Shown: positions 2,654 to 31,517 of the stretch, in pieces
Layout: each line of letters begins with the position of its first letter
Numbering within the stretch: the first letter of the stretch is position 1
Assembly (NCBI GenBank): GCA_964593365.1
Contig: CAZQGQ010000002.1
Coordinates: 85,671-149,670 of the forward strand
Length of the DNA: 64,000 nt
Direction of reading: 5' to 3'
Origin: an uncultured Candidatus Saccharibacteria bacterium
GTDB taxonomy: Bacteria; Patescibacteriota; Minisyncoccia; Phycocordibacterales; Phycocordibacteraceae
Position numbers and translations under genes: made by a program
The notes under the pieces: generated by a model
What the model saw: only the letters and a program-made list of their open reading frames with translations
What the model was told of the DNA's origin: nothing
The model's database searches: none

Positions 2654-3883
2654 TTATTGTCCCTGCCAGGCTACCCGGTAAATCGCACCTGAGCGGTCAT
2701 CTGATACGAAGACCACGCCTCCGGGCTCTGCAAGAAGCCCTACCGGGCGTCCAAGGACGCTATCTTCGTCTCCGCCTTCAGGCAGAAAACCAGACATGAA
2801 GTCTATGGGCGTGGTTGAGACCGGCATGCCGTTTGGCGCAAGGTCAAAGCGCACGACGCTGTAGCCGGTCGGAGTGCTGCGGTTCCAAGAACCGTGATAC
2901 GCGATAAGAGCGTCATGCCACATGTCTTCCGGCCATCCTTCCTCAGGCACGAAAGCGATTCCCAAAGCTGCTGAGTGCGCCTGGAGCGCTAGGTGCGGAG
3001 AAATCTTTCCTGTGCAGGGGTTTTGGATGTACTGCCGCTTATCGAAGTCGGTGTCGTGAACATTATTTCCGTAGCAGATAGGCCAGCCATAGTCATTCCC
3101 CTTCCGGATGATATTCACTTCGTCAGGAGGAATATTGTCCCCGAGGAGATCACGAGCATTGTCAGTGGCCCAGATCTCTCCCGTGACTGGATGGAGCGCG
3201 AGGAATACCGCATTACGAAGTCCTGTCGCATACACTTCTGAATCTCCGGTTGTGAGGTCTATGGCAGTTATCGTTGCGCGAAGCGGATTGGTTTCGTTAC
3301 AGACGTTGCAAGAGGAGCCGATCGAAACGAGCAATGTGTTGCTGTCAGGATGCATGAGGAAGGTCCTGGTGAAGTGCCCGGATCCCGCTGGAGTAGTGAG
3401 CAGCGTCTCGTCATAGGTTGCAGTACGAGCCGCTGGGTCATAGCTGTAACGCTTCACCGCGCCCTCCTCGCCTACGTAGAGGAAGCAACTTCCCCCCTCA
3501 TCACAGTCAAACAAGATGCCGTGCGGTTTGTTTAGGTTTTCAAGTATCGTGATGACCTCATCAGCCTCTGCGTCATTATTCTCGTCAGGAAGCGCGACGA
3601 TCTTTCCTGAGTTAAGGAGCGAAGCAACAAGAACGCCATTAGGGTCTCGAGTGAGGACACGGACCCCGGGAGTATCTCTCGAGTAAATGGTTGCTATGAA
3701 TCCTTCAGGAACGGGAAAAGGTGCGACAGGTCCTGCCGGAAGCGGTGGGGGCGGGTCTGTCTTCGTTACGGCCTTGATCAACCAGCTTGGCGGCGTTTTC
3801 TTCACATAATCATAGGCGGCGTATCCGCCAAGAAGCACGCAGAAGATGACGAGCAGGACGAGAGCAGTTTTGGGACGCATCAT
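2654..3883 (-). CDS. PQQ-dependent sugar dehydrogenase (soluble glucose/sorbosone dehydrogenase family), N-terminal membrane anchor
   Basis: 409 aa with an N-terminal TM helix. The GNDYGWP motif and beta-propeller repeats are typical of the GSDH family. Confidence 0.75.
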   Translation of the reverse strand: MMRPKTALVLLVIFCVLLGGYAAYDYVKKTPPSWLIKAVTKTDPPPPLPAGPVAPFPVPEGFIATIYSRDTPGVRVLTRDPNGVLVASLLNSGKIVALPDENNDAEADEVITILENLNKPHGILFDCDEGGSCFLYVGEEGAVKRYSYDPAARTATYDETLLTTPAGSGHFTRTFLMHPDSNTLLVSIGSSCNVCNETNPLRATITAIDLTTGDSEVYATGLRNAVFLALHPVTGEIWATDNARDLLGDNIPPDEVNIIRKGNDYGWPICYGNNVHDTDFDKRQYIQNPCTGKISPHLALQAHSAALGIAFVPEEGWPEDMWHDALIAYHGSWNRSTPTGYSVVRFDLAPNGMPVSTTPIDFMSGFLPEGGDEDSVLGRPVGLLAEPGGVVFVSDDRSGAIYRVAWQGQ

Positions 3884-3980: not shown

Positions 3981-5033
3981 ATGGCATTTGATGGACAGAA
4001 ACAACCAGGCCTTGAAGGTCCTAAGTGGCGCACTTGGGCAGAAGGAGCAAAGCAAATGCAGGAGTTGCGTCCTCTCTTTGAGAAAGCATATACGGAGATA
4101 GAAAACCGAAAGCAAATGAAGATGGCGGAAATCGCTGCTCGCTTCCATGTAACCGAAGAAGATGGTCTTGAGGAAAAAATGCTCAAAGAAGCAAAACAAA
4201 AGCTTCAGGAGATACAACGAACCCTTCCCTTCAAGACAGGTGACAAAGCTACCTTTACTAACCTTCGTAGAGAGGCAGAAACGATATTTGCGAAGCTTGG
4301 CGTCCCCATGTGGGTGCACGTCGACGAGACAGGCAATCTGGTGTCTGTGTTTGGGAAGGCCGAATCAACGTTTGCTGACGAACTTGACACACCTCTTACG
4401 CAGGATTCTGACGAGCAGCTTGCGCAGCGAGAGGCGGCATTCGAAAAGACTGAGACTGAACGAAAAGCGTTTGAGAAAGCTGCTACCACCTTCCTTACTC
4501 GCTACAAGAGCATGTGGGCGGGAGAAGGTTATCTTGGCATAAGCGTGGACGAAGCGCGCAAGGAGTTCTCTACCGCTCTCCATTCGTACGCGGTAGCGTG
4601 GCGAGATGCGATGGGAACTAAAGACGTATATGACATGGCCGCTTTTTATCAACGAACACTTCTCCCCGTTCTTGAGGAACAGAAAAGAATCCAAGAAAGC
4701 GATTCGGTGCTCATAGACGCACCTAAACGCCGAACAAAGCTGTGGCAATCCGTACTTCGTTTCTCAGTGTTCTTGCTTACCTTTGGGACAGCAACTGCCT
4801 ACGCCCCAAACGCAGGCGTGCAAGGCGCTACTACAGCCTCTTCAAGTGAGAACGGTATGGCCTTGCCCTATGACCCCTACCAACCATCGCTTGAGGGCGT
4901 GGATACACTGATTGAGGAATTGCTAAACGAGGACGGTACTCTTCCTGGCATCCCTGAACTACCTCCTCAAAGCTTGGGAAGCGACGAAGGTCTTGAGCCT
5001 GCGGACGCACCCAATATGCCTCAAGAACCGTAG
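3981..5033 (+). CDS. Hypothetical membrane protein (cytoplasmic coiled-coil N-terminal region, one TM helix, acidic/Pro-rich extracytoplasmic tail)
   Basis: 350 aa; charged helical N-terminal 240 aa, a TM segment LWQSVLRFSVFLLTFGTATAYA, and a C-terminal E/D/P-rich region. Confidence 0.5.
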   Translation: MAFDGQKQPGLEGPKWRTWAEGAKQMQELRPLFEKAYTEIENRKQMKMAEIAARFHVTEEDGLEEKMLKEAKQKLQEIQRTLPFKTGDKATFTNLRREAETIFAKLGVPMWVHVDETGNLVSVFGKAESTFADELDTPLTQDSDEQLAQREAAFEKTETERKAFEKAATTFLTRYKSMWAGEGYLGISVDEARKEFSTALHSYAVAWRDAMGTKDVYDMAAFYQRTLLPVLEEQKRIQESDSVLIDAPKRRTKLWQSVLRFSVFLLTFGTATAYAPNAGVQGATTASSSENGMALPYDPYQPSLEGVDTLIEELLNEDGTLPGIPELPPQSLGSDEGLEPADAPNMPQEP

Positions 5034-5034
5034 G

Positions 5035-5451
5035 CTAGGGTGAACACTTCTCGCAGGAGCAGCCTTTCGGCTTGATGTAATCGTTCCAGTATTCCTTGCC
5101 GTAATCGTAGGAAAACTCTTCTCCTTCCTTGATTTTGCGCCGTGCCATCACAAAGACGCGCTTATTGCGTATCTCAATCTCGCTGTTAGGCCGGCAGGAG
5201 TGGTTTATGTAGCGCGCGGTATTAGAGCGCATGGTTCCGTCTATGGTCTTTCGCTTGTTCACCTCGAACAGATACTTACTTCGGCTCGTATACACCTCCT
5301 CGCTTGAGATGGTGCGTCCCTTGTATTCGATGATGCAAGCGCCTTTCGGTATCTCTTCCCCGGCAAAAAGCCCAAGCCCTGCATGTGAGCGCTTCACGAC
5401 CACCTTAAATCCCCCTGGGACAAACTTCCCTTTCCGTTTAGTGCGCGGCAT
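5035..5451 (-). CDS. SET-domain protein (putative protein lysine methyltransferase)
   Basis: 138 aa. SET motifs are ARYINHSCRPN, EEFSYDYG and a post-SET Cys cluster CSCEKC. The N-terminus is very basic: PRTKRKGKFVPGG. It sits 4 nt downstream of the GH18 gene on the same strand. Confidence 0.8.
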   Translation of the reverse strand: MPRTKRKGKFVPGGFKVVVKRSHAGLGLFAGEEIPKGACIIEYKGRTISSEEVYTSRSKYLFEVNKRKTIDGTMRSNTARYINHSCRPNSEIEIRNKRVFVMARRKIKEGEEFSYDYGKEYWNDYIKPKGCSCEKCSP

Positions 5452-5455
5452 ACAG

Positions 5456-6643
5456 CTAATCGAGCTTCTTCCAAAGATCCGAATCTTCGCCTCCGTCTAT
5501 CTTGAAGATCGCTACGCCCTTGAGGCCAAGGGACTGCGCAAGGTCGATCTTGTCTTCGATCGCCTCTGCATCGCTCCACCAGACGAGATTGAACTTCACT
5601 TCCTGTCCCGTCTTGTTTGCCTGCGCAAGCGCGCGTGCAGCGACTTCGTTGCCGCTTGCCGTTCCCTTGGGAGCTGAGACAGAAGAGAGGAGACGCGTTC
5701 CGGAGTCGTCAGGGATATACGAGAAGGACAATTCTCCCGCGGAGTTCCGGCTTGGCGTTACATCATATTCATCAGCCGTATCAAGCGCGTACTCAGGATT
5801 CACAGACCAGAGCATGCGGTAGCCCTTGTACCAGTCTGGGGCAACCGTTACTTCTACTTCGCGTCCGTACGTCCCAACGCCAAGCACGATCTTGTCCTTG
5901 CTGATTGTTTGCGCTGTGAAGTTCACGACTTTGCGCACCCACTCAATGTCAGCGAGGGGCATATAGGGTGAGCCCTTTCGTGCGTCGTTAAGCTTCAAGT
6001 CAGCTCGCTGCTGGTCGTAGGTCATGAGGTTCACACGGTCGCAGTACTTGTTGATCTCGACGTAGTCGTTTGCGTACTCAATGACAGGCGGGATAACACG
6101 GTAGAGGGAATCCGGAGGCGTTCGCGCTTCGGTGGTGCAGACAAGCATCTTGCTGCCTAGCGCCGCATCGAGTTCCTTAAGGAACAGGGAGTAGTAGATC
6201 TTTGTGGCTGCCGACTTCCCTTCGTAGTCTATATCGACTCCGTCATACTTTCCTTTCTTGACCAGGTCAGCGATCCGCTTCACGTGATCGGCACGAAGTT
6301 TCGAATCCGAAAGAATCTTCTGGATGTTTACGGTATCGCTCCACATGACGGTAGGAACGACGAGCACCTTCTTTTTCTTGGCGTCCTTCAGAAGTTTGGA
6401 CCAGCTGCTTTTTGTGAGTCCCGCAAGATCCTTGAGGGTGCCGTCTGGCTGCACGCCAATGGCAAACGGGTGGATCATGTCCAGGTCCTTCAAGTTCTTT
6501 TGCGCATCCTTGGTTCCCTTTGAGCCGCTCCAATACGGAATCCAGCCGGAAACTTCGATATCAGCAGCGCGCGCGGAAGGAGCGCCTCCGAGAACGAGAG
6601 CAAGAACGAAAACAAGACTAAGTGATCGAGCAATGAGAGTCAT
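5456..6643 (-). CDS. Glycoside hydrolase family 18 (chitinase-like), secreted
   Basis: GH18 catalytic motif YDGVDIDYEG. I chose the start at MTLIARSLSLVFVLALVLGGAPSARA, a signal peptide (track ORF starts at 6712). A -10 TATACT sits 9 nt upstream of this ATG. Confidence 0.75.
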   Translation of the reverse strand: MTLIARSLSLVFVLALVLGGAPSARAADIEVSGWIPYWSGSKGTKDAQKNLKDLDMIHPFAIGVQPDGTLKDLAGLTKSSWSKLLKDAKKKKVLVVPTVMWSDTVNIQKILSDSKLRADHVKRIADLVKKGKYDGVDIDYEGKSAATKIYYSLFLKELDAALGSKMLVCTTEARTPPDSLYRVIPPVIEYANDYVEINKYCDRVNLMTYDQQRADLKLNDARKGSPYMPLADIEWVRKVVNFTAQTISKDKIVLGVGTYGREVEVTVAPDWYKGYRMLWSVNPEYALDTADEYDVTPSRNSAGELSFSYIPDDSGTRLLSSVSAPKGTASGNEVAARALAQANKTGQEVKFNLVWWSDAEAIEDKIDLAQSLGLKGVAIFKIDGGEDSDLWKKLD

Positions 6644-6684
6644 AGTGTTTCTAGTATAAATAAAATATCGAGTCCGCGCCACTT

Positions 6685-6712
6685 TTGACGCTTGGGGGCG
6701 AGAGCGTATCAT
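6685..6712 (+). promoter_or_regulatory. Sigma70-like promoter TTGACG-N16-TATCAT, -10 located 6 nt before the ATG at 6719 (leaderless)
   Basis: Read directly from the sequence; this is the same -35/-10 architecture that recurs across the window. Confidence 0.45.
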
Positions 6713-6718
6713 TTATGA

Positions 6719-7324
6719 ATGCTTCCAGCGTTCAAGAAACTCTCAACCCCTAAGAAAATCCAAGACTTTCTGGACACCCTTCCCATAAACTACGAGAAGC
6801 AGGGTGAGACTTGCATGAGCCCTTCACATGTCCTCAAAGCAAAGAAGGCGCACTGCCTCGAAGGAGCACTGCTTGCAGCTGCCGCGCTCTGGGCGTACGG
6901 GGAAAGGCCGCTCCTCATGAACCTCAAGTCTGCCAACGGGGACGACGATCACGCAGTTGCCCTGTATCGCATTAATGGCTACTGGGGTGCCATCTCAAAG
7001 ACCAACCATTCATCTCTTCGCTTCCGGGATCCCATATACAAAACCGTCCGCGAGCTCGCTCTCTCCTATTTCCATGAATACTTTGTAAACAAGACAGGTG
7101 CTAAGACTTTGCGTGCGTATTCAGATCCCTTACGTCTCACCCAGTTTGGAAAAGACTGGGTGACAAGTGAGAAGAATCTCTGGGCCATAGCCCACGCCCT
7201 TCGAGATGCTAAGCACCATGCACTCGTACCTGCTACCAATAAAAGGCATATACGAGCTGCAGATAAGATCGAGCGGCGCGCTGGAACGATCATTGAGTGG
7301 AAAAAGAGCGATCCGCGCACCTAA
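6719..7324 (+). CDS. Hypothetical protein, probably a papain-like fold Cys/His enzyme (NAT/transglutaminase-like motif)
   Basis: 201 aa. KKAHCLEGALLAAAAL resembles the catalytic Cys context of arylamine N-acetyltransferases and transglutaminase-like proteases, and a DDDH motif lies downstream. Confidence 0.4.
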   Translation: MLPAFKKLSTPKKIQDFLDTLPINYEKQGETCMSPSHVLKAKKAHCLEGALLAAAALWAYGERPLLMNLKSANGDDDHAVALYRINGYWGAISKTNHSSLRFRDPIYKTVRELALSYFHEYFVNKTGAKTLRAYSDPLRLTQFGKDWVTSEKNLWAIAHALRDAKHHALVPATNKRHIRAADKIERRAGTIIEWKKSDPRT

Positions 7325-7341
7325 AAGTGCCTCGTGCTACC

Positions 7342-8226
7342 ATGGGGCATCGTATGAAGCGGAACACCCAACTAGCAGCCGCCCTAGGAGTACTCATCGT
7401 CATATTGTTTGGGGTTATCTCCTATCTCTACTACCAAAAGACTGTGGCGCTTACCGATACCCGCATTGCCCTTGAAGAGGCAACGACGACATCCGCAATG
7501 CTTCAGGAGAAGCTTCGGACAGAAGAAGCGGAAAGTGACGTTCTTGCGGACGCGCTTCAGGCCGAGAAAGATCGGAACGATGCGTTTGAAGGAAAGATCA
7601 GCGAGATCAGCGGCACTGTGGGCAAGCTCGATAAGCTCTCGAAGATGGATCCTGAGCTTTTGCAGAAATACTCTAAGGTCTACTTCCTCAACGAGAACTA
7701 TGCTCCTTCGGCCCTGGCTACGGTAGATGTTGGCTACCGGTTTAACGAAGAGAAGCTTGAGGAGGTGCATGCACAGATGCTCCCGTTTCTCACTGAGCTT
7801 CTTGAGGATGCAAAAGATGACGACGTTGAGCTTCTCGTCGCCTCTTCCTACCGGTCCTTCGGGCGGCAAGGGGGCCTTAAGGCAAGCTATACGGTCCGGT
7901 ACGGCTCAGGGGCAAACGCTTTCTCCGCCGAGCAAGGATACTCAGAGCACCAGCTCGGGACAGCCATCGATTTCACTACTAAAGACGTGGGAGGCAATTT
8001 CGTAGGGTTTGATGACAGCGAAGCATTTGAATGGCTCACGCATAACGCATATAAATATGGGTTCATACTTTCCTACCCTGAAGGAAACGCGTACTACCAG
8101 TACGAACCGTGGCACTGGCGCTTTGTTGGAGAAGATCTTGCCCGAGACCTGCGGAATGACGATAAGAATTTTTACGACCTGGACCAGCGAGAGATTGATC
8201 CGTACCTGATTGATTTCTTTGATTAA
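7342..8226 (+). CDS. D-alanyl-D-alanine carboxypeptidase, VanY / peptidase M15B family, N-terminal TM anchor
   Basis: M15B motifs SSYRS, QGYSEHQLGTAIDF and EPWHWR. Start chosen at MGHRMKRNT to avoid overlap with the upstream gene (track start 7297). Confidence 0.8.
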   Translation: MGHRMKRNTQLAAALGVLIVILFGVISYLYYQKTVALTDTRIALEEATTTSAMLQEKLRTEEAESDVLADALQAEKDRNDAFEGKISEISGTVGKLDKLSKMDPELLQKYSKVYFLNENYAPSALATVDVGYRFNEEKLEEVHAQMLPFLTELLEDAKDDDVELLVASSYRSFGRQGGLKASYTVRYGSGANAFSAEQGYSEHQLGTAIDFTTKDVGGNFVGFDDSEAFEWLTHNAYKYGFILSYPEGNAYYQYEPWHWRFVGEDLARDLRNDDKNFYDLDQREIDPYLIDFFD

Positions 8227-8564: not shown

Positions 8565-8598
8565 TCTGGGCGCCGACATGAGAGTCGACGCCCAGTTT
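8565..8598. terminator. Hairpin terminator between the two small basic-protein genes
   Basis: 11-bp stem with one C/A mismatch (ctgggcgccgac...gtcgacgcccag), then TTTT on the plus strand and a U-rich tail on the minus strand. Confidence 0.45.
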
Positions 8599-8850: not shown

Positions 8851-8908
8851 AGGAGGGTAATGCAAAACCCGCAGCCACAAGGGCTGCGGGTTTTGGCTGT
8901 CTTTAAAT

Positions 8909-9517
8909 CTAGCGAAGAGCGAAGGTGTCGTCTTCGACCAGGGCACGGAGGTCTTCCTGGGTCTCAGGAATGTCGCTTAGGGCTACCTTTCCGATGACAC
9001 GGACCGAGACTCCGATGCAGACACCAAGGGCAAGGCTCGGGTTGGTCTGGATCCCGTGCACAGGGACGGTATCCGCCTGGTTCAAGAGGACGTCTACCTG
9101 CTGGCGCTTGCGGGAGTGCATGCTGTCCCCGATAACGCGGTAGCCGATCAAGTGCTCAACAGCCCCGAAGCGGCAGTTCTCAGAGTCCACTGACTCTCGG
9201 GTGATAGCGACGATGGTTCCGTACGGAAGGGTCCCGGCAAGGTCAACTGAGCGGGCAGCGATGACTTCCGGGTTTGAACGCGCTCCAGAGGCGGTCAGGT
9301 TCGGATTATGGTCGGTCTGCTCAGGTACGGCGTTATAAGACGTCAGCTTTACGAGCAGTTCCTCCTCGCCTGAGGCGCGGACAACGCTCGTCGGGGTAGC
9401 GACGGCAAGGGTGGTGGTTGCTACCTCGGCTGCTTCGGCAATAGGAGCCGAAACCTCCGGTGCGGGGGTTCCCGCGATAGCAAACAAGCCCACAAGGGCT
9501 ATAGCGATTGCATGCAT
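8909..9517 (-). CDS. 3D-domain protein (MltA/RlpA-like lytic transglycosylase-related), secreted
   Basis: N-terminal signal/TM segment. 3D-domain motifs LTSYNAV, TASGA, LPYGT and IGDSM. Confidence 0.65.
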   Translation of the reverse strand: MHAIAIALVGLFAIAGTPAPEVSAPIAEAAEVATTTLAVATPTSVVRASGEEELLVKLTSYNAVPEQTDHNPNLTASGARSNPEVIAARSVDLAGTLPYGTIVAITRESVDSENCRFGAVEHLIGYRVIGDSMHSRKRQQVDVLLNQADTVPVHGIQTNPSLALGVCIGVSVRVIGKVALSDIPETQEDLRALVEDDTFALR

Positions 9518-9897: not shown

Positions 9898-11952
9898 ATG
9901 AGACTTTTCGGCATCACGGTCTCGTACCCCCGCACCAAACGCCACTGGCGATCGGGGGCCCTTCTCATGATCGCTTACATAGCGGCTACTCGCATTTCGA
10001 GCGCCCTATTTGCCGCCCCAGCGATCATCTTCCCCGCTTCAGGCATCGCCCTAGGCGGACTTTTTCTTGAAGGCCTTATCCTCTGGCCGTTTGTCTATTT
10101 CGCCTCCCTTATTGGCTACATCTTGAATGGGTCGACCTTGGTCACGATGGCGGTATTGCCAGTTGCTCACACCCTGCAGGCTGTCCTCGGGGCCTGGCTC
10201 TTGCGCAAGCTCAACGTTGATCCGATCTTCCATCGTCTTCGGGACATGTTTGCAGTGCTTGGCACAAGCCTTGTTCTTGCCATTTTTGTTCCCCTTGTTG
10301 GGATGTTTATCCTTGGCCCGTTGAACCAGCACTTCTACGGCATTGCCCCCTCAAGCGTCACGCTGATCTCGTGGTACACGGGCACCTTGTTCTCACTCCT
10401 CTTTTTTGCTCCGTTTGTGATGCGCTGGCTGTCAAAGCCCTACTTCAATCGGTCATGGTCCGAGATTCTTGAGATTGCAGCGGCCTTTGGCCTTCTCGCT
10501 CTTATCAGCGTGCCGCTCTTTTGGGATGGGGTCGTCGCCGTCTTGAATATCTCGCTCGTCTATTTCTTGCTGGTTCCCTTCTTCTGGATGGCTCTTCGCA
10601 TGGGAACGCGCTTCCTGACGCTTGCGCTTGTCTTCCTTGCGGTCGTCGCGATCTCCGGAACCATGTACGGGATGGGGGCTCCAGGTGCAGAGGATCTTGG
10701 AATGCGGCTCTTTCAGGTGCAGATATTCCTAAACATCATCGCTCTCATCTTTTATGTCCTTGTATCCCTTCAAGACGAGCGAACCATGGCTCAGTCGCTT
10801 CTTATATCCCAAGTGCAAAACCTCCGTGGAGCTCTCGATCAGCTCGCGTCTCAAAACCGTGCAAAAACTGAATTCATCGCCATGCTTGCCCACGAGCTTC
10901 GCAATCCACTGGCTCCTATTGCAAGCGGGATAGATTTACTAAAAGCAAAGGTCTCAGGTGAAGACGCTGGGACGCTCGACGTCATGCATAGCCGTATGCA
11001 GACAGTGAAGCGCCTCCTTGATGATCTTCTGGACGTCTCGCGCATAACTGAGCAAAAGCTCTCGCTTCAAAAAGAAACTGTTGATCTCTCAGCGCTTGCC
11101 CGTCACGCCGCTCTCTCCGCAGATCATTACTTTAAAGAACGCGATCAAACGCTTCTACTTAACCTACCTGATACTCCAGTGCTTATTGAGGCTGACCCGG
11201 TGCGCATTGAGCAAGTGCTCACGAACTTGCTCACGAACGCTTCGAAGTTCTCGAACATGGGCGAGGAAGTCTCCCTTACCGTTCGGCAATCAGGCTCTAT
11301 TGCAGAGGTGCTGGTCGTCGATCAGGGCGTTGGCATTGAGAAAGAAATGATCTCGCGCATCTTCGAACCATTCCTTCAAGTTGAGCTGGGACAACGCACC
11401 CGCCAGGGTCTTGGGATAGGACTTGCGCTGGTACGAAATCTCATTGAGATGCACGGAGGAACCGTAAAAGTGCGTAGCGAAGGGAAAGACAAAGGCAGCC
11501 AGTTCAGCGTTCTGCTGCCTTTGTCTACAGGAAAAGCGCCTGAAGCAAAAATCGTTATCCCCTCCCCTATTTCAGGGTCTGATAAAGCGCCGGGGGCCGG
11601 AAAGAAAGTCCTCGTCGTTGATGATAATGATGCTGCGGCCTGGGGTATTGGGAAACTGTTGGAAATCAAAGGGTATGAAATTGAGTACGCCTATGACGCC
11701 GAACAGGTTTTTGCACGGGTTGAGGAGTTCACGCCCGATGCCATTCTCCTCGACATCGGCCTCCCTGATCAAAGCGGGTATGACGTAGCGAAGACCCTAC
11801 GAGCACAAGGATACGCAGGCACGCTTGTGGCCCTCACCGGCTATAGTGAGGATGACGATCTTGATCGCGCGAAGGAAGTGGGCTTTGACCACCATCTCGT
11901 GAAGCCTGTTGGAATTGCAGAGCTTCGCAAGGTGCTTCCTCGCAACTCCTAG
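9898..11952 (+). CDS. Hybrid sensor histidine kinase (multi-TM sensor domain, HisKA, HATPase_c, C-terminal receiver)
   Basis: H-box AMLAHELRNPLAPI, ATPase G-boxes VVDQGVGIEKE and GLGIGLALV, and a receiver domain KVLVVDDNDAAA...LLDIGLPDQSG...KPV. Confidence 0.85.
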   Translation: MRLFGITVSYPRTKRHWRSGALLMIAYIAATRISSALFAAPAIIFPASGIALGGLFLEGLILWPFVYFASLIGYILNGSTLVTMAVLPVAHTLQAVLGAWLLRKLNVDPIFHRLRDMFAVLGTSLVLAIFVPLVGMFILGPLNQHFYGIAPSSVTLISWYTGTLFSLLFFAPFVMRWLSKPYFNRSWSEILEIAAAFGLLALISVPLFWDGVVAVLNISLVYFLLVPFFWMALRMGTRFLTLALVFLAVVAISGTMYGMGAPGAEDLGMRLFQVQIFLNIIALIFYVLVSLQDERTMAQSLLISQVQNLRGALDQLASQNRAKTEFIAMLAHELRNPLAPIASGIDLLKAKVSGEDAGTLDVMHSRMQTVKRLLDDLLDVSRITEQKLSLQKETVDLSALARHAALSADHYFKERDQTLLLNLPDTPVLIEADPVRIEQVLTNLLTNASKFSNMGEEVSLTVRQSGSIAEVLVVDQGVGIEKEMISRIFEPFLQVELGQRTRQGLGIGLALVRNLIEMHGGTVKVRSEGKDKGSQFSVLLPLSTGKAPEAKIVIPSPISGSDKAPGAGKKVLVVDDNDAAAWGIGKLLEIKGYEIEYAYDAEQVFARVEEFTPDAILLDIGLPDQSGYDVAKTLRAQGYAGTLVALTGYSEDDDLDRAKEVGFDHHLVKPVGIAELRKVLPRNS

Positions 11953-19545: not shown

Positions 19546-19668
19546 TCCACAGGACACGCATCGACATTGCTTTTTGGTGATTTGTGTCCCATACTTGGAC
19601 TAACTCGCAGGTTTCAAGAGGCTTCGGCAGTTCGGTATCGGCGAGAACTTAAAAAATCACGTTCACGC

Positions 19669-20043
19669 ATGGCTAATACCAAGTTGTACGTCGGAGGCAT
19701 CCCCTACCGCACGACCGAAGATGAGATGCGAACCGCCTTTGAAGAGGCCGGAGCAGTCACATCAGCAAGCATTATTATGGACCGCATGACGGGCCGCTCA
19801 CGAGGTTTCGGCTTCGTTGAAATGGCTGACGAAGCGGGAGCCCAGGCAGCTATCGACCGCTGGGACGGCAAGGAATTTGATGGGCGCACGCTCTCAGTTT
19901 CCTTTGCTCGCCCTCAGGGTGATCGCCCTCCTCGCGAAGGCGGTGGAGGTGGCAGTCGCGGAGGTTTTGGCGGCGGTAACCGCGGAGGCGGCTACGGCGG
20001 CGGAAACAACGATCGCGGAGGCTACCACAGCGGAGGCTACTAA
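19669..20043 (+). CDS. RNA-binding protein with RRM domain and Gly-rich C-terminal tail
   Basis: RNP2 LYVGGIPY and RNP1 RGFGFVEM, followed by a GGGGSRGGFGGGNRGGGYGGGN tail. Start at the internal Met MANTKLY. Confidence 0.85.
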   Translation: MANTKLYVGGIPYRTTEDEMRTAFEEAGAVTSASIIMDRMTGRSRGFGFVEMADEAGAQAAIDRWDGKEFDGRTLSVSFARPQGDRPPREGGGGGSRGGFGGGNRGGGYGGGNNDRGGYHSGGY

Positions 20044-30257: not shown

Positions 30258-31517
30258 TTAGTAGCTCTTCAAACGACGCGCCTTTTCGTGCGTACGGATC
30301 TTCTCAAGCGCTTTCGCTTCAATCTGGCGGATTCGCTCGCGCGTAACGCCGAACTCGCGACCCACCTCTTCAAGGGTGTGATAGATGCCGTCAAGGAGTC
30401 CATGGCGCATTTCCAATATCTTTCGCTCTTTGGGAGAGAGGTCATCGAGGATATCGCGAACCTGTTCGGTCAAGATGCGCTCTGAGGATTCTTGGACCGG
30501 AGACGGGATCTTGTCGTCTGCAATAAAGTCACCAAGCGTTGATTTGTCATCGTCATCGGATCCGATCGGGTTTTCAAGCGAGAGCGTGTCCTGGTTGATC
30601 TTCTCGATCTGGTAGATCTTCTCAACTTCAACGCCCATCTCTACCGCAATCTCTTCAGGCTGCGCATCGCGGCCAAGCGCCTGCGACAGGCGACGCGACA
30701 CCTGCTTGTACTTAGCGATGGTTTCCACCATGTGGACAGGAATGCGGATGGTGCGGGACTGGTCGGCAAGGGCGCGAGTGATGGCCTGGCGAATCCACCA
30801 TGTTGCGTAGGTTGAGAACTTGTACCCTTTCTTCCAGTCGAACTTATCGACGGCTTTAAAGAGACCAATGTTCCCTTCTTGGATAAGGTCGAGGAGCGTC
30901 AGATCTGGAGAACGGCCGACGTATTTCTTTGCGATAGAGACCACGAGGCGAAGGTTGCTTCGTGCAAGGATGTTGCGAGCCTCGTCATCTCCAGCGTCAA
31001 TGCGCTTAGCGAGCTCGCGCTCCTCAGCCGCAGTCAGAAGTGGGTACTGGCCGATCTCACGAAGGTAGATCTGGATGGAGTCGTAGCTTGCTGAGTCGCG
31101 ACCTTTGATGTTGCGAGTTGCAAGATACTCGTCCGCATTGTCTTCGAGCATGCCGCCTTCAAGAATGTCGATACCGGTCGTGACGAAGCGCTCATAGAGC
31201 TCATCGAGGAAGTTAACGTCATCCTCAACATGCGGAAATTCCTTAAGAATCTCGCTATAGGTGATGTAGCCTCGCTCGCGCCCCTTTACGATAAGCGCTT
31301 CTGCCTTCTTCATGCGATCAGACGCTGCTGACTTTTTAGCACCCTGCACGCCAGCGCGAACGACGGCCATAGCGCGCTTTTGTACTGGAGCCTTCTTCTG
31401 CACCTTCTTAGCTTTAGGAGCCGCCTTCTTTGGCTTTGCCTTTGGCTTATGCGTCGAAGAACGCGCTGAAGATGCACGCTTGGTGGTTGTTTTTTTCTTC
31501 ATCTTAGGTGAGGCCAT
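30258..31517 (-). CDS. rpoD: RNA polymerase sigma factor, sigma-70 (RpoD)
   Basis: Regions 1.2 to 4 are present (YLREIG; region 2.4 [12 protein letters not shown]; region 4.2 [24 protein letters not shown]), with a basic N-terminal tail. Confidence 0.95.

Follow-up and report, generated by a model that had tools for sequence, protein, structure and literature searches.

A SET-domain gene beside a CPR-C4 protease gene in a conserved gene cluster of Paceibacteria: action on endogenous bacterial proteins is favoured over a host-directed effector

INTRODUCTION

Does a small SET-domain protein that is encoded next to a glycoside hydrolase act on the chromatin of a eukaryotic host, or on a protein of the bacterium that makes it? 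The question is raised by a gene at positions 5035-5451 of a 64,000-nt stretch of contig CAZQGQ010000002.1 (contig positions 85,671 to 149,670; the whole stretch is referred to as the window), which belongs to a genome of the Paceibacteria, within the candidate phyla radiation (CPR/Patescibacteria). In a preliminary description of this DNA the basic N-terminus of the SET protein was likened to a nuclear localisation signal (NLS) of the kind found in effectors that methylate host histones, and the glycoside hydrolase family 18 (GH18) protein encoded beside it was regarded as a chitin-directed partner suited to a life with eukaryotes; action of SET on the bacterium's own proteins was named as a fallback. 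If true, the effector-plus-chitinase framing would imply manipulation of eukaryotic chromatin by a CPR bacterium. The results presented below point away from that framing, and a false lead is thereby averted.

The reading preferred here, to which we give a probability of roughly 0.65, is that the locus is an ordinary conserved CPR cluster, arranged as two divergent two-gene units, in which wall enzymes are combined with a SET protein and a homologue of the protease CPR-C4 that would modify endogenous proteins. Every gene of the cluster is from a known family, and SET proteins of free-living bacteria have long been known (PMC3980110). Among the papers listed on SET in connection with Patescibacteria, CPR or Parcubacteria, none mentions a SET domain, and the literature searched likewise yielded no SET-CPR-C4 linkage, no adjacency of SET to a SWIB gene and no occurrence of this SET family in both Paceibacteria and Alphaproteobacteria.

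RESULTS

Layout of the cluster

All of the features described earlier for the stretch 5035-8226 were located there, as follows.

5035-5451, minus strand: SET gene, 138 aa, product beginning MPRTKRKGKF; Pfam SET
5452-5455, minus strand: spacer between GH18 and SET, read from the sequence as CTGT between the GH18 stop codon TAG and the SET ATG
5456-6643, minus strand: GH18 gene, 395 aa, in an open reading frame (ORF) that extends to 6712; Pfam Glyco_hydro_18
6644-6718, no strand: divergent control region, 75 nt between the GH18 and CPR-C4 starts
6719-7324, plus strand: CPR-C4 homologue, 201 aa (the ORF earlier called NAT/papain-like)
7354-8226, plus strand: VanY/LdcB-type gene, 290 aa, in an ORF that opens at 7297; Pfam VanY

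The genes form two two-gene units placed back to back, GH18 followed by SET leftward and CPR-C4 followed by VanY rightward, with the 75-nt control region in common. The spacing of only 4 nt between GH18 and SET, reported before and confirmed here, implies co-transcription of the two genes, which we infer, and translation of SET is probably coupled to that of GH18 across the gap. No minus-strand promoter-like site was found upstream of SET in a sequence scan that included the 3' end of GH18.

The SET protein and its family

The SET protein matched Pfam PF00856 with an E-value of 5.9e-23 (81.7 bits, cut-off 22.4). In 31 homologues the residues G25-L-G27, N83-H-S-C86 and Y115-D-Y117 were invariant, and they align with the motifs of MLL. 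A post-SET cysteine cluster of the MLL type was found at C86, C131, C133 and C136; the first three were invariant in the same 31 sequences and the fourth was conserved in at least 90%, with His in a few members. The nearest solved relatives were KMT2/MLL SET domains, both by sequence (approximately 1e-18) and by fold (Foldseek E=4e-9, 36% identity over the full length), the AF2 model being of moderate confidence (pLDDT 71.7, below 50 for residues 1-6). The window SET is thus predicted to be a stand-alone, S-adenosylmethionine (SAM)-dependent, MLL-like lysine methyltransferase. Its sole NCBIfam match was the Legionella effector LegAS4 (NF043024), with an E-value of 9.6e-12 and 44.4 bits against a cut-off of 550 bits, and a secretion signal was not found on the protein.

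The basic N-terminus (MPRTKRKGKF) was present as described. The segment that precedes the KRS-AGLGLF block contained on average 5.1 K/R compared to 1.4 D/E in CPR copies, and 4.1 K/R compared to 0.5 D/E in alphaproteobacterial copies, which additionally have basic C-terminal tails. Since the basic N-terminus is common to free-living bacteria, it is no evidence of nuclear import, and the sense of an NLS that had been given to it is not supported for what is a trait of the whole family. More plausibly, the tail would help SET to dock on a partner that is acidic or bound to nucleic acid.

With a threshold of E<=1e-3, 3950 homologues of SET were found, and species-representative genomes contained 541 places with a confirmed relative. 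The family is approximately 140 residues long and shows 60-78% identity across Paceibacteria; CPR copies had a mean identity of 64% to one another and of 61% to alphaproteobacterial copies. Alphaproteobacterial SET genes accounted for 21 of the best 80 genomic loci (for example L067, 6424-6939, and L033; L019-L081 subset), lying on contigs of 62-67% GC and encoding proteins with 62-70% identity to the window protein. Cultured carriers included Methyloceanibacter superfactus R-67175 (139-kb contig) and M. marginalis R-67177. In neighbour-joining trees (115-137 columns, calculated without support values) the alphaproteobacterial sequences formed two clades, one of Hyphomicrobiales type and one of Caulobacterales type, and both sat among CPR sequences, beside an Adlerbacteria/Nomurabacteria-like group. 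This placement suggests transfer of the SET gene between CPR bacteria and Alphaproteobacteria, with a direction that is tentative, and such transfer would be informative about the organisms among which these uncultured bacteria live. The alphaproteobacterial loci contained none of the genes that neighbour SET in CPR bacteria, and a search of these loci for a conserved partner returned a single recurrent gene, an FAD-oxidoreductase-like one in the Methyloceanibacter-type loci.

The CPR-C4 homologue and its linkage to SET

The ORF at 6719-7324, rightly described as papain-like, can now be specified. It matched CPR-C4 (PDB 7OB6, 7OB7 and 7PJO) over residues 6-197 of 201 with a phmmer E-value of 1.6e-59, and it gave a weak Pfam transglutaminase-like match (DUF553, E=5.5e-5). 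Residues C46, H78 and L100 align with the C61/H93/L115 triad and were invariant in 26 homologues. The ORF belongs to the CPR-C4 family (CP01A), and its product is predicted to be a cytoplasmic vasohibin-like cysteine protease. The published CPR-C4 is a homodimeric vasohibin-like cysteine protease that has a Cys-His-Leu(carbonyl) triad and whose pocket is positively charged (Cornish et al. 2022, PMC9108980); it came from an Adlerbacteria-like organism, and its gene neighbourhood was judged uninformative on function (PMC9108980).

Synteny was compared in the 80 best SET-centred genomic loci and in 80 CPR-C4-centred metagenomic loci, of which 49 SET-centred CPR loci and 51 CPR-C4-centred loci were informative; for 44 CPR loci, every gene up to three positions away from SET was also clustered in an unbiased manner. 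CPR-C4 was found in the SET flank in 29 of the 49 loci, and in 19 of these it was divergent from SET within 500 nt. VanY was present in 21 and GH18 in 15 of the same 49. The unbiased clustering gave CPR-C4 in 21 of 44 loci (15 immediately adjacent), VanY in 11 and GH18 in 8. CPR-C4 is therefore the commonest neighbour of SET, and it occurs in two orientations. When the comparison was centred on CPR-C4, SET lay within 6 kb in 16 of 51 loci. VanY followed CPR-C4 immediately on its 3' side in many related loci. On the downstream side of SET, the gene for BacA was found in 7 of the 44 loci, mostly two genes away.

Two architectures keep the pair together. One is the divergent CPR-C4/SET arrangement, and the other is a tandem arrangement in which the gene for a secreted 202-aa protein is followed by CPR-C4 and then by SET, verified in one locus (L129) with gaps of 18 and 58 nt. 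The two belong to separate SET clades, and a third, Adlerbacteria/Nomurabacteria-like clade lacks the linkage. Insertion of GH18 between CPR-C4 and SET is seen chiefly in a single subclade, to which the window belongs, and GH18 stands directly upstream of SET in seven loci, the window included. The GH18/SET unit is a lineage-specific variant of a broader neighbourhood with CPR-C4 and SET as its core.

The preliminary description had named, as evidence that would speak against it, a housekeeping bacterial clade for SET, synteny conserved in free-living relatives and a GH18 without catalytic residues. SET was indeed found in a bacterial clade with free-living members, and the catalytic residues of GH18 were kept. 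The synteny was divided, adjacency of GH18 to SET being limited mainly to one subclade and that of CPR-C4 to SET being widespread.

On the other side of SET lies a convergent gene.

3981-5033, plus strand: 350-aa gene, convergent on SET, no family match

Its product gave no match to Pfam or NCBIfam, and a homologue was found in 0 of the 49 CPR loci. The gene is lineage-specific and lies outside the conserved cluster.

The commonest downstream family next to SET in the unbiased clustering was a SWIB/MDM2-domain protein (6 of 44 loci). In eukaryotes and in Chlamydiae, the SWIB domain is associated with chromatin. It was separately observed that this protein is a stand-alone one of 84 aa (Pfam E=1.1e-33) with 80-92% identity between loci, and that its gene stands next to SET in about a dozen Paceibacteria loci, mostly convergent (L007, 8506-8757, minus strand; L039, 4383-4634, minus strand; L009, L017, L020, L023, L038, L045 and L062), and approximately 1 kb from SET in L078 and L084. 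No SWIB gene was found in the 64-kb window by tblastn.

The GH18 protein

The GH18 protein matched Pfam Glyco_hydro_18 with an E-value of 3.9e-25 (89.6 bits, cut-off 29.6). The DGVDIDYE motif noted earlier was intact (D134-G-V-D137-I-D139-Y-E141, numbered on the 395-aa protein); among 30 homologues D137, D139 and E141 were invariant and D134 was kept in at least 90%. The MTYD motif (M207, Y209, D210) was invariant as well. With these residues retained, GH18 is probably an active glycosidase. Its secretion, which had also been claimed, is supported by a predicted signal peptide, in which a hydrophobic helix is followed by an AxA site, MTLIARSLSLVFVLALVLGGAPSARA/AD, conserved in the family consensus. 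A longer, 418-aa protein starting at 6712 was considered and dropped, the homologues being approximately 390 aa long and the gene callers, on identical metagenome contigs, starting at 6643 (M24).

A total of 1525 homologues of approximately 390 aa was found in Patescibacteria, with the JGI label 'spore germination protein YaaH'. Apart from Glyco_hydro_18, Pfam gave no domain for the window protein or for any of the 120 homologues listed; neither a chitin-binding module (CBM5/12, ChtBD3 and similar) nor LysM was found by Pfam in the window protein or among those 120. The best PDB matches by sequence were 4q6t, YdhD (3cz8) and YaaH/SleL (4s3k, 4s3j). For the AF2 model (pLDDT 90.6), Foldseek ranks 1 to 4 were occupied by SleL (E=4e-23), a spore cortex-lytic enzyme, followed by bacterial class V chitinase-like structures and YdhD. 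In PHROGs the domain resembled GH18 domains of phage tail proteins. Peptidoglycan or a related wall glycan is more likely than chitin to be the substrate.

VanY and the secreted 202-aa protein

The VanY-like peptidase of the preliminary description was verified by a Pfam VanY match with an E-value of 2.9e-31 (108.4 bits, cut-off 25). The likely start codons are at 7342 or 7354, and gene calls were of 290 or 294 aa; with the start at 7354, the gene begins 29 nt 3' of CPR-C4 on the same strand. The scores were below the NCBIfam equivalog cut-offs of LdcB (65 vs 275 bits), VanY-B/G (62 vs 400 bits) and VanXY (52 vs 250 bits). In PHROGs the domain resembled the peptidase domain of phage tape-measure proteins. 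The protein is predicted to be a membrane-anchored D-Ala carboxypeptidase of the VanY/LdcB type.

A further recurrent member of the neighbourhood is encoded beyond VanY.

8909-9517, minus strand: secreted 202-aa protein with a signal peptide, of a family without assignment

Proteins of this family are approximately 185-205 aa long and share an invariant T-x-Y-N...Q-T...P...A-S-G motif and two invariant cysteines. There was no Pfam match at E-values up to 0.1 and no PDB match, whether the protein was searched alone or as a 22-sequence profile. The motif may resemble that of the wall-lytic domain of the 3D/YuiC type. Homologues adjoin CPR-C4 in 13 of the 51 CPR-C4-centred loci and lie directly upstream of it in the tandem architecture.

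In the gene-poor gap of approximately 680 nt between VanY and the 202-aa gene, two strong GC-rich hairpins of 12 and 14 pairs were observed (8566-8595, minus strand, and 8863-8895, plus strand), which are probably terminators. The gene callers differ on the presence of a small basic ORF in this gap.

Control regions

In the 75-nt control region a promoter-like sequence, TTGACG-16-TATCAT, was found at 6685-6712 on the plus strand, ending 6 nt 5' of the CPR-C4 ATG, and on the minus strand TATACT was found 9 nt 5' of the GH18 ATG. In relatives that lack GH18, CPR-C4 and SET are mostly separated by only 22-67 nt, with back-to-back -10 boxes. Taken together, the divergent CPR-C4/SET or CPR-C4/GH18 intergenic regions of the window and 32 related loci had -10-like boxes 6-9 nt from each ATG and no Shine-Dalgarno sequence. 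This arrangement suggests overlapping promoters, and the position of a -10-like box only a few nucleotides from each start codon makes it likely that the GH18 and CPR-C4 transcripts are leaderless or nearly so.

Lineage of the organism and other genes of the window

The exact SET protein was encoded on 23 metagenome contigs, of which the longest measure 647-659 kb, with an identical gene order in all. SET homologues and syntenic loci were named Candidatus Paceibacterota, Parcubacteria, Vogelbacteria, Adlerbacteria and Nomurabacteria, and the neighbouring ribonucleotide reductase gene was 88-91% identical to copies in Paceibacterota metagenome-assembled genomes. The window also encodes rpoB, rpoC, rpoD, dnaG and an SMC gene, and the region is therefore chromosomal. 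A prophage origin was considered and dropped; the PHROGs matches were to wall-degrading phage-tail domains only, and the cluster is chromosomal and syntenic between species. PADLOC gave no defence-system match for any of six genes, and scans for tRNA genes and Rfam families gave no match over the whole window.

Several further observations concern genes around the cluster. A 240-aa protein with a signal peptide and a Pfam OMP_b-brl domain (E=7e-16) is encoded at 1801-2523 on the minus strand, and it is unexpected, as CPR bacteria are generally held to have no outer membrane. It is nearly an orphan, with 3 homologues in a database of 5.8 billion proteins; in L063 and L076, weak relatives (23-30% identity) occupy the corresponding place on the downstream side of SET. 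The genes at 2654-3883 (minus strand) and 9898-11952 (plus strand) flank the cluster and are kept only in the closest relatives, L063, L076 and L093. One of the two encodes a membrane-anchored beta-propeller related to GSDH/TrAA12 (PQQ-type sugar dehydrogenases), and the other encodes a MASE1-HisKA-HATPase-receiver hybrid sensor kinase.

Small or basic ORFs of the window were also scanned. The three small basic protein genes that the preliminary description had proposed as possible SET substrates were not confirmed: Pfam identified an RRM-type (RNP-1) RNA-binding protein and RpoD, with no HU-type match, in a scan that was not a systematic search for basic substrates. The ORF of the RRM protein (19567-20043, plus strand; Pfam RRM_1, E=5e-22) is extended by a basic segment at its N-terminus. 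The primary sigma factor RpoD (30258-31517, minus strand), with regions 1.1 to 4 complete, has an N-terminal extension of approximately 65 aa that is rich in Lys, Ala and Pro and is histone-H1-like.

DISCUSSION

How the cluster may work

These findings are consistent with a division of labour across the membrane. GH18, with its signal peptide, and VanY, with its N-terminal membrane anchor, would act on peptidoglycan outside the membrane, and SET and CPR-C4, which have no export signals, would modify proteins in the cytoplasm. SET would methylate one or more lysines of an endogenous, widely conserved bacterial protein; it is itself highly conserved and is present without CPR-C4 in Alphaproteobacteria, so that its substrate is probably a protein common to bacteria. 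The basic N-terminal tail, joined in some members by a C-terminal one, would help SET to dock and would not serve nuclear import. The basic tails and the SWIB neighbour give a weak hint that the target is nucleoid- or nucleic-acid-associated. By comparative genomics SET and CPR-C4 are the conserved core, with VanY, GH18, the 202-aa protein, BacA and SWIB as frequent and interchangeable neighbours. Of the readings in the preliminary description, the fallback of an endogenous target for SET is the better supported.

A narrower proposal, which we regard as tentative and on the unlikely side, is that SET and CPR-C4 are a selected two-enzyme module, kept in both orientations and directed at one shared endogenous target. 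A connection of that target to envelope growth or division is suggested by the neighbouring VanY, GH18, BacA and secreted-protein genes, and one to the nucleoid is suggested by SWIB. If true, the module would be the first physiological lead for CPR-C4 and would mirror, in bacteria, the way in which eukaryotes pair SET-type with vasohibin-type enzymes on proteins of the cytoskeleton and of chromatin. A functional link between SET and CPR-C4 in whatever form is possible but somewhat doubtful.

Several observations weigh against the preferred reading. The SET-CPR-C4 linkage was missing in approximately 40% of SET-centred CPR loci, in approximately 69% of CPR-C4-centred loci and in all alphaproteobacterial loci, and since the architectures track phylogeny, the independent events are few (approximately two). 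The solved structures nearest to SET are all eukaryotic histone methyltransferases (KMT2/MLL), and the only NCBIfam match is LegAS4, albeit far under the cut-off. Some Parcubacteria have been reported in protists, and a eukaryotic partner is conceivable in some lineages. For GH18, fold alone cannot separate peptidoglycan-cutting from chitin-cutting enzymes, and class V chitinase-like structures follow close behind SleL.

Alternative explanations

The alternative that survives best is one of inherited gene order only, in which SET, CPR-C4 and the wall genes would be unrelated in function and held together by slow rearrangement within Paceibacteria. We rate it as a serious competitor whose chance falls a little short of even. 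Such inertia would agree with architectures that follow the SET phylogeny through few independent events, with the absence of a nearby CPR-C4 from one large CPR clade and from all alphaproteobacterial copies, and with the two-thirds of CPR-C4-centred loci that have no SET within 6 kb. It agrees less well with the difference between the two flanks of SET, of which the CPR-C4 flank is conserved and the other is not (28 vs 0 of 49 loci), or with a pair whose members are still adjacent after inversion, in divergent order in one clade and in tandem in a second. The very short intergenic regions and overlapping promoters also argue for more than inertia.

It is unlikely, in our estimate, that GH18 is a true chitinase or chitodextrinase by which polymers of GlcNAc are scavenged as food, with no connection to SET. 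Intact motifs and the class V chitinase-like structures 5jh8, 4wiw and 4q6t, which rank right after SleL in Foldseek, are what such an enzyme would show; the protein, however, has no carbohydrate-binding module, its best matches are the peptidoglycan-active SleL, YaaH and YdhD, and its recurrent neighbours are peptidoglycan enzymes, namely VanY and in some loci BacA.

CPR bacteria often live as episymbionts on prokaryotes (PMC9108980), and the GH18 and VanY domains resemble wall-degrading domains of phage tails. The cluster could then be weaponry, with GH18 and VanY attacking the wall of a prokaryotic host and SET and CPR-C4 being delivered into that bacterium or archaeon. This explanation appears improbable, as neither SET nor CPR-C4 has an export signal, SET occurs alone in free-living Alphaproteobacteria, and cells also routinely use SleL-type GH18 proteins and LdcB-type peptidases to remodel their own walls.

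The idea that SET is a secreted, NLS-bearing effector that methylates host histones, with GH18 as a chitinase for life on a chitin-bearing eukaryote, is very improbable: the closeness of SET to KMT2/MLL by sequence and fold, the weak LegAS4 match, the K/R-rich N-terminus with its predicted flexibility and the intact catalytic motif of GH18 are outweighed by a LegAS4 score of 44 vs 550 bits, by the lack of a signal peptide on SET, by the assignment of the organism to the Paceibacteria, by the presence of the family with its basic tail in Methyloceanibacter, which is cultured and free-living, and in hundreds of species of Paceibacteria, and by a GH18 that has no chitin-binding module, is nearest to SleL/YaaH/YdhD and adjoins SET in a limited subclade. 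Neither the host-histone effector nor the chitin partner for a eukaryote-associated life was upheld.

Significance

CPR-C4 is among the few CPR proteins with a solved structure, and its link to SET, VanY and envelope genes offers a concrete and testable context. We know of no culture of this CPR lineage. Culturable Methyloceanibacter carry a closely similar SET (62-70% identity), which makes the substrate question experimentally tractable.

Comparison with known systems

SleL, YaaH and YdhD (4S3K, 4S3J, 3CZ8), N-acetylglucosaminidases of family GH18 that act on the spore cortex, are the best relatives of the window GH18 by sequence and fold, and they have the complete DxxDxDxE motif and the COG-style annotation in common with it. 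The window protein differs in having a signal peptide in place of LysM, in coming from a non-spore-former and in showing only 18-21% identity. With the VanY/LdcB D-Ala carboxypeptidases the window VanY shares the Pfam VanY domain and matches to the LdcB and VanY models; it differs from the known enzymes by its N-terminal membrane anchor and coiled-coil-like linker, and no van resistance genes were found nearby.

The window SET is 33-37% identical to KMT2/MLL (MLL1, PDB 2W5Y and 5F6L) over all 138 residues and is predicted to have the same fold, with the GxG, NHSC and EELxYDY motifs and the post-SET zinc-site cysteines in common. In contrast to KMT2/MLL, it is a stand-alone protein of approximately 140 aa with a short basic N-terminal tail and without modules for partner binding or chromatin reading, its post-SET spacing is CxCxxC where theirs is CxCx4C, and it is of bacterial source, from organisms without histones. 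The SET catalytic core is also shared with LegAS4/RomA, Chlamydia NUE and Burkholderia BtSET, but the window protein has no ankyrin or other effector modules, and its family is found in free-living bacteria and throughout Paceibacteria. Closer in kind may be Go1-SET of Methanosarcina mazei, which reportedly methylates MC1-alpha, and Chlamydia cpnSET, which is said to methylate Hc1/Hc2, in each case chromatin proteins of the cell itself. Like the window protein, these are small stand-alone prokaryotic SET proteins with a presumed target that is endogenous and basic or nucleic-acid-bound.

The window CPR-C4 is a full-length homologue of the protein of 7OB6, 7OB7 and 7PJO with the triad kept, protease activity and the homodimer having been shown for the published protein. 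The context of the published gene was uninformative; here, linkage to SET and VanY was found in most Paceibacteria loci outside the Adlerbacteria-like clade. As the Adlerbacteria/Nomurabacteria-like clade is the one without linkage, the Adlerbacteria-like source of CPR-C4 may explain why no SET neighbour was seen by its authors.

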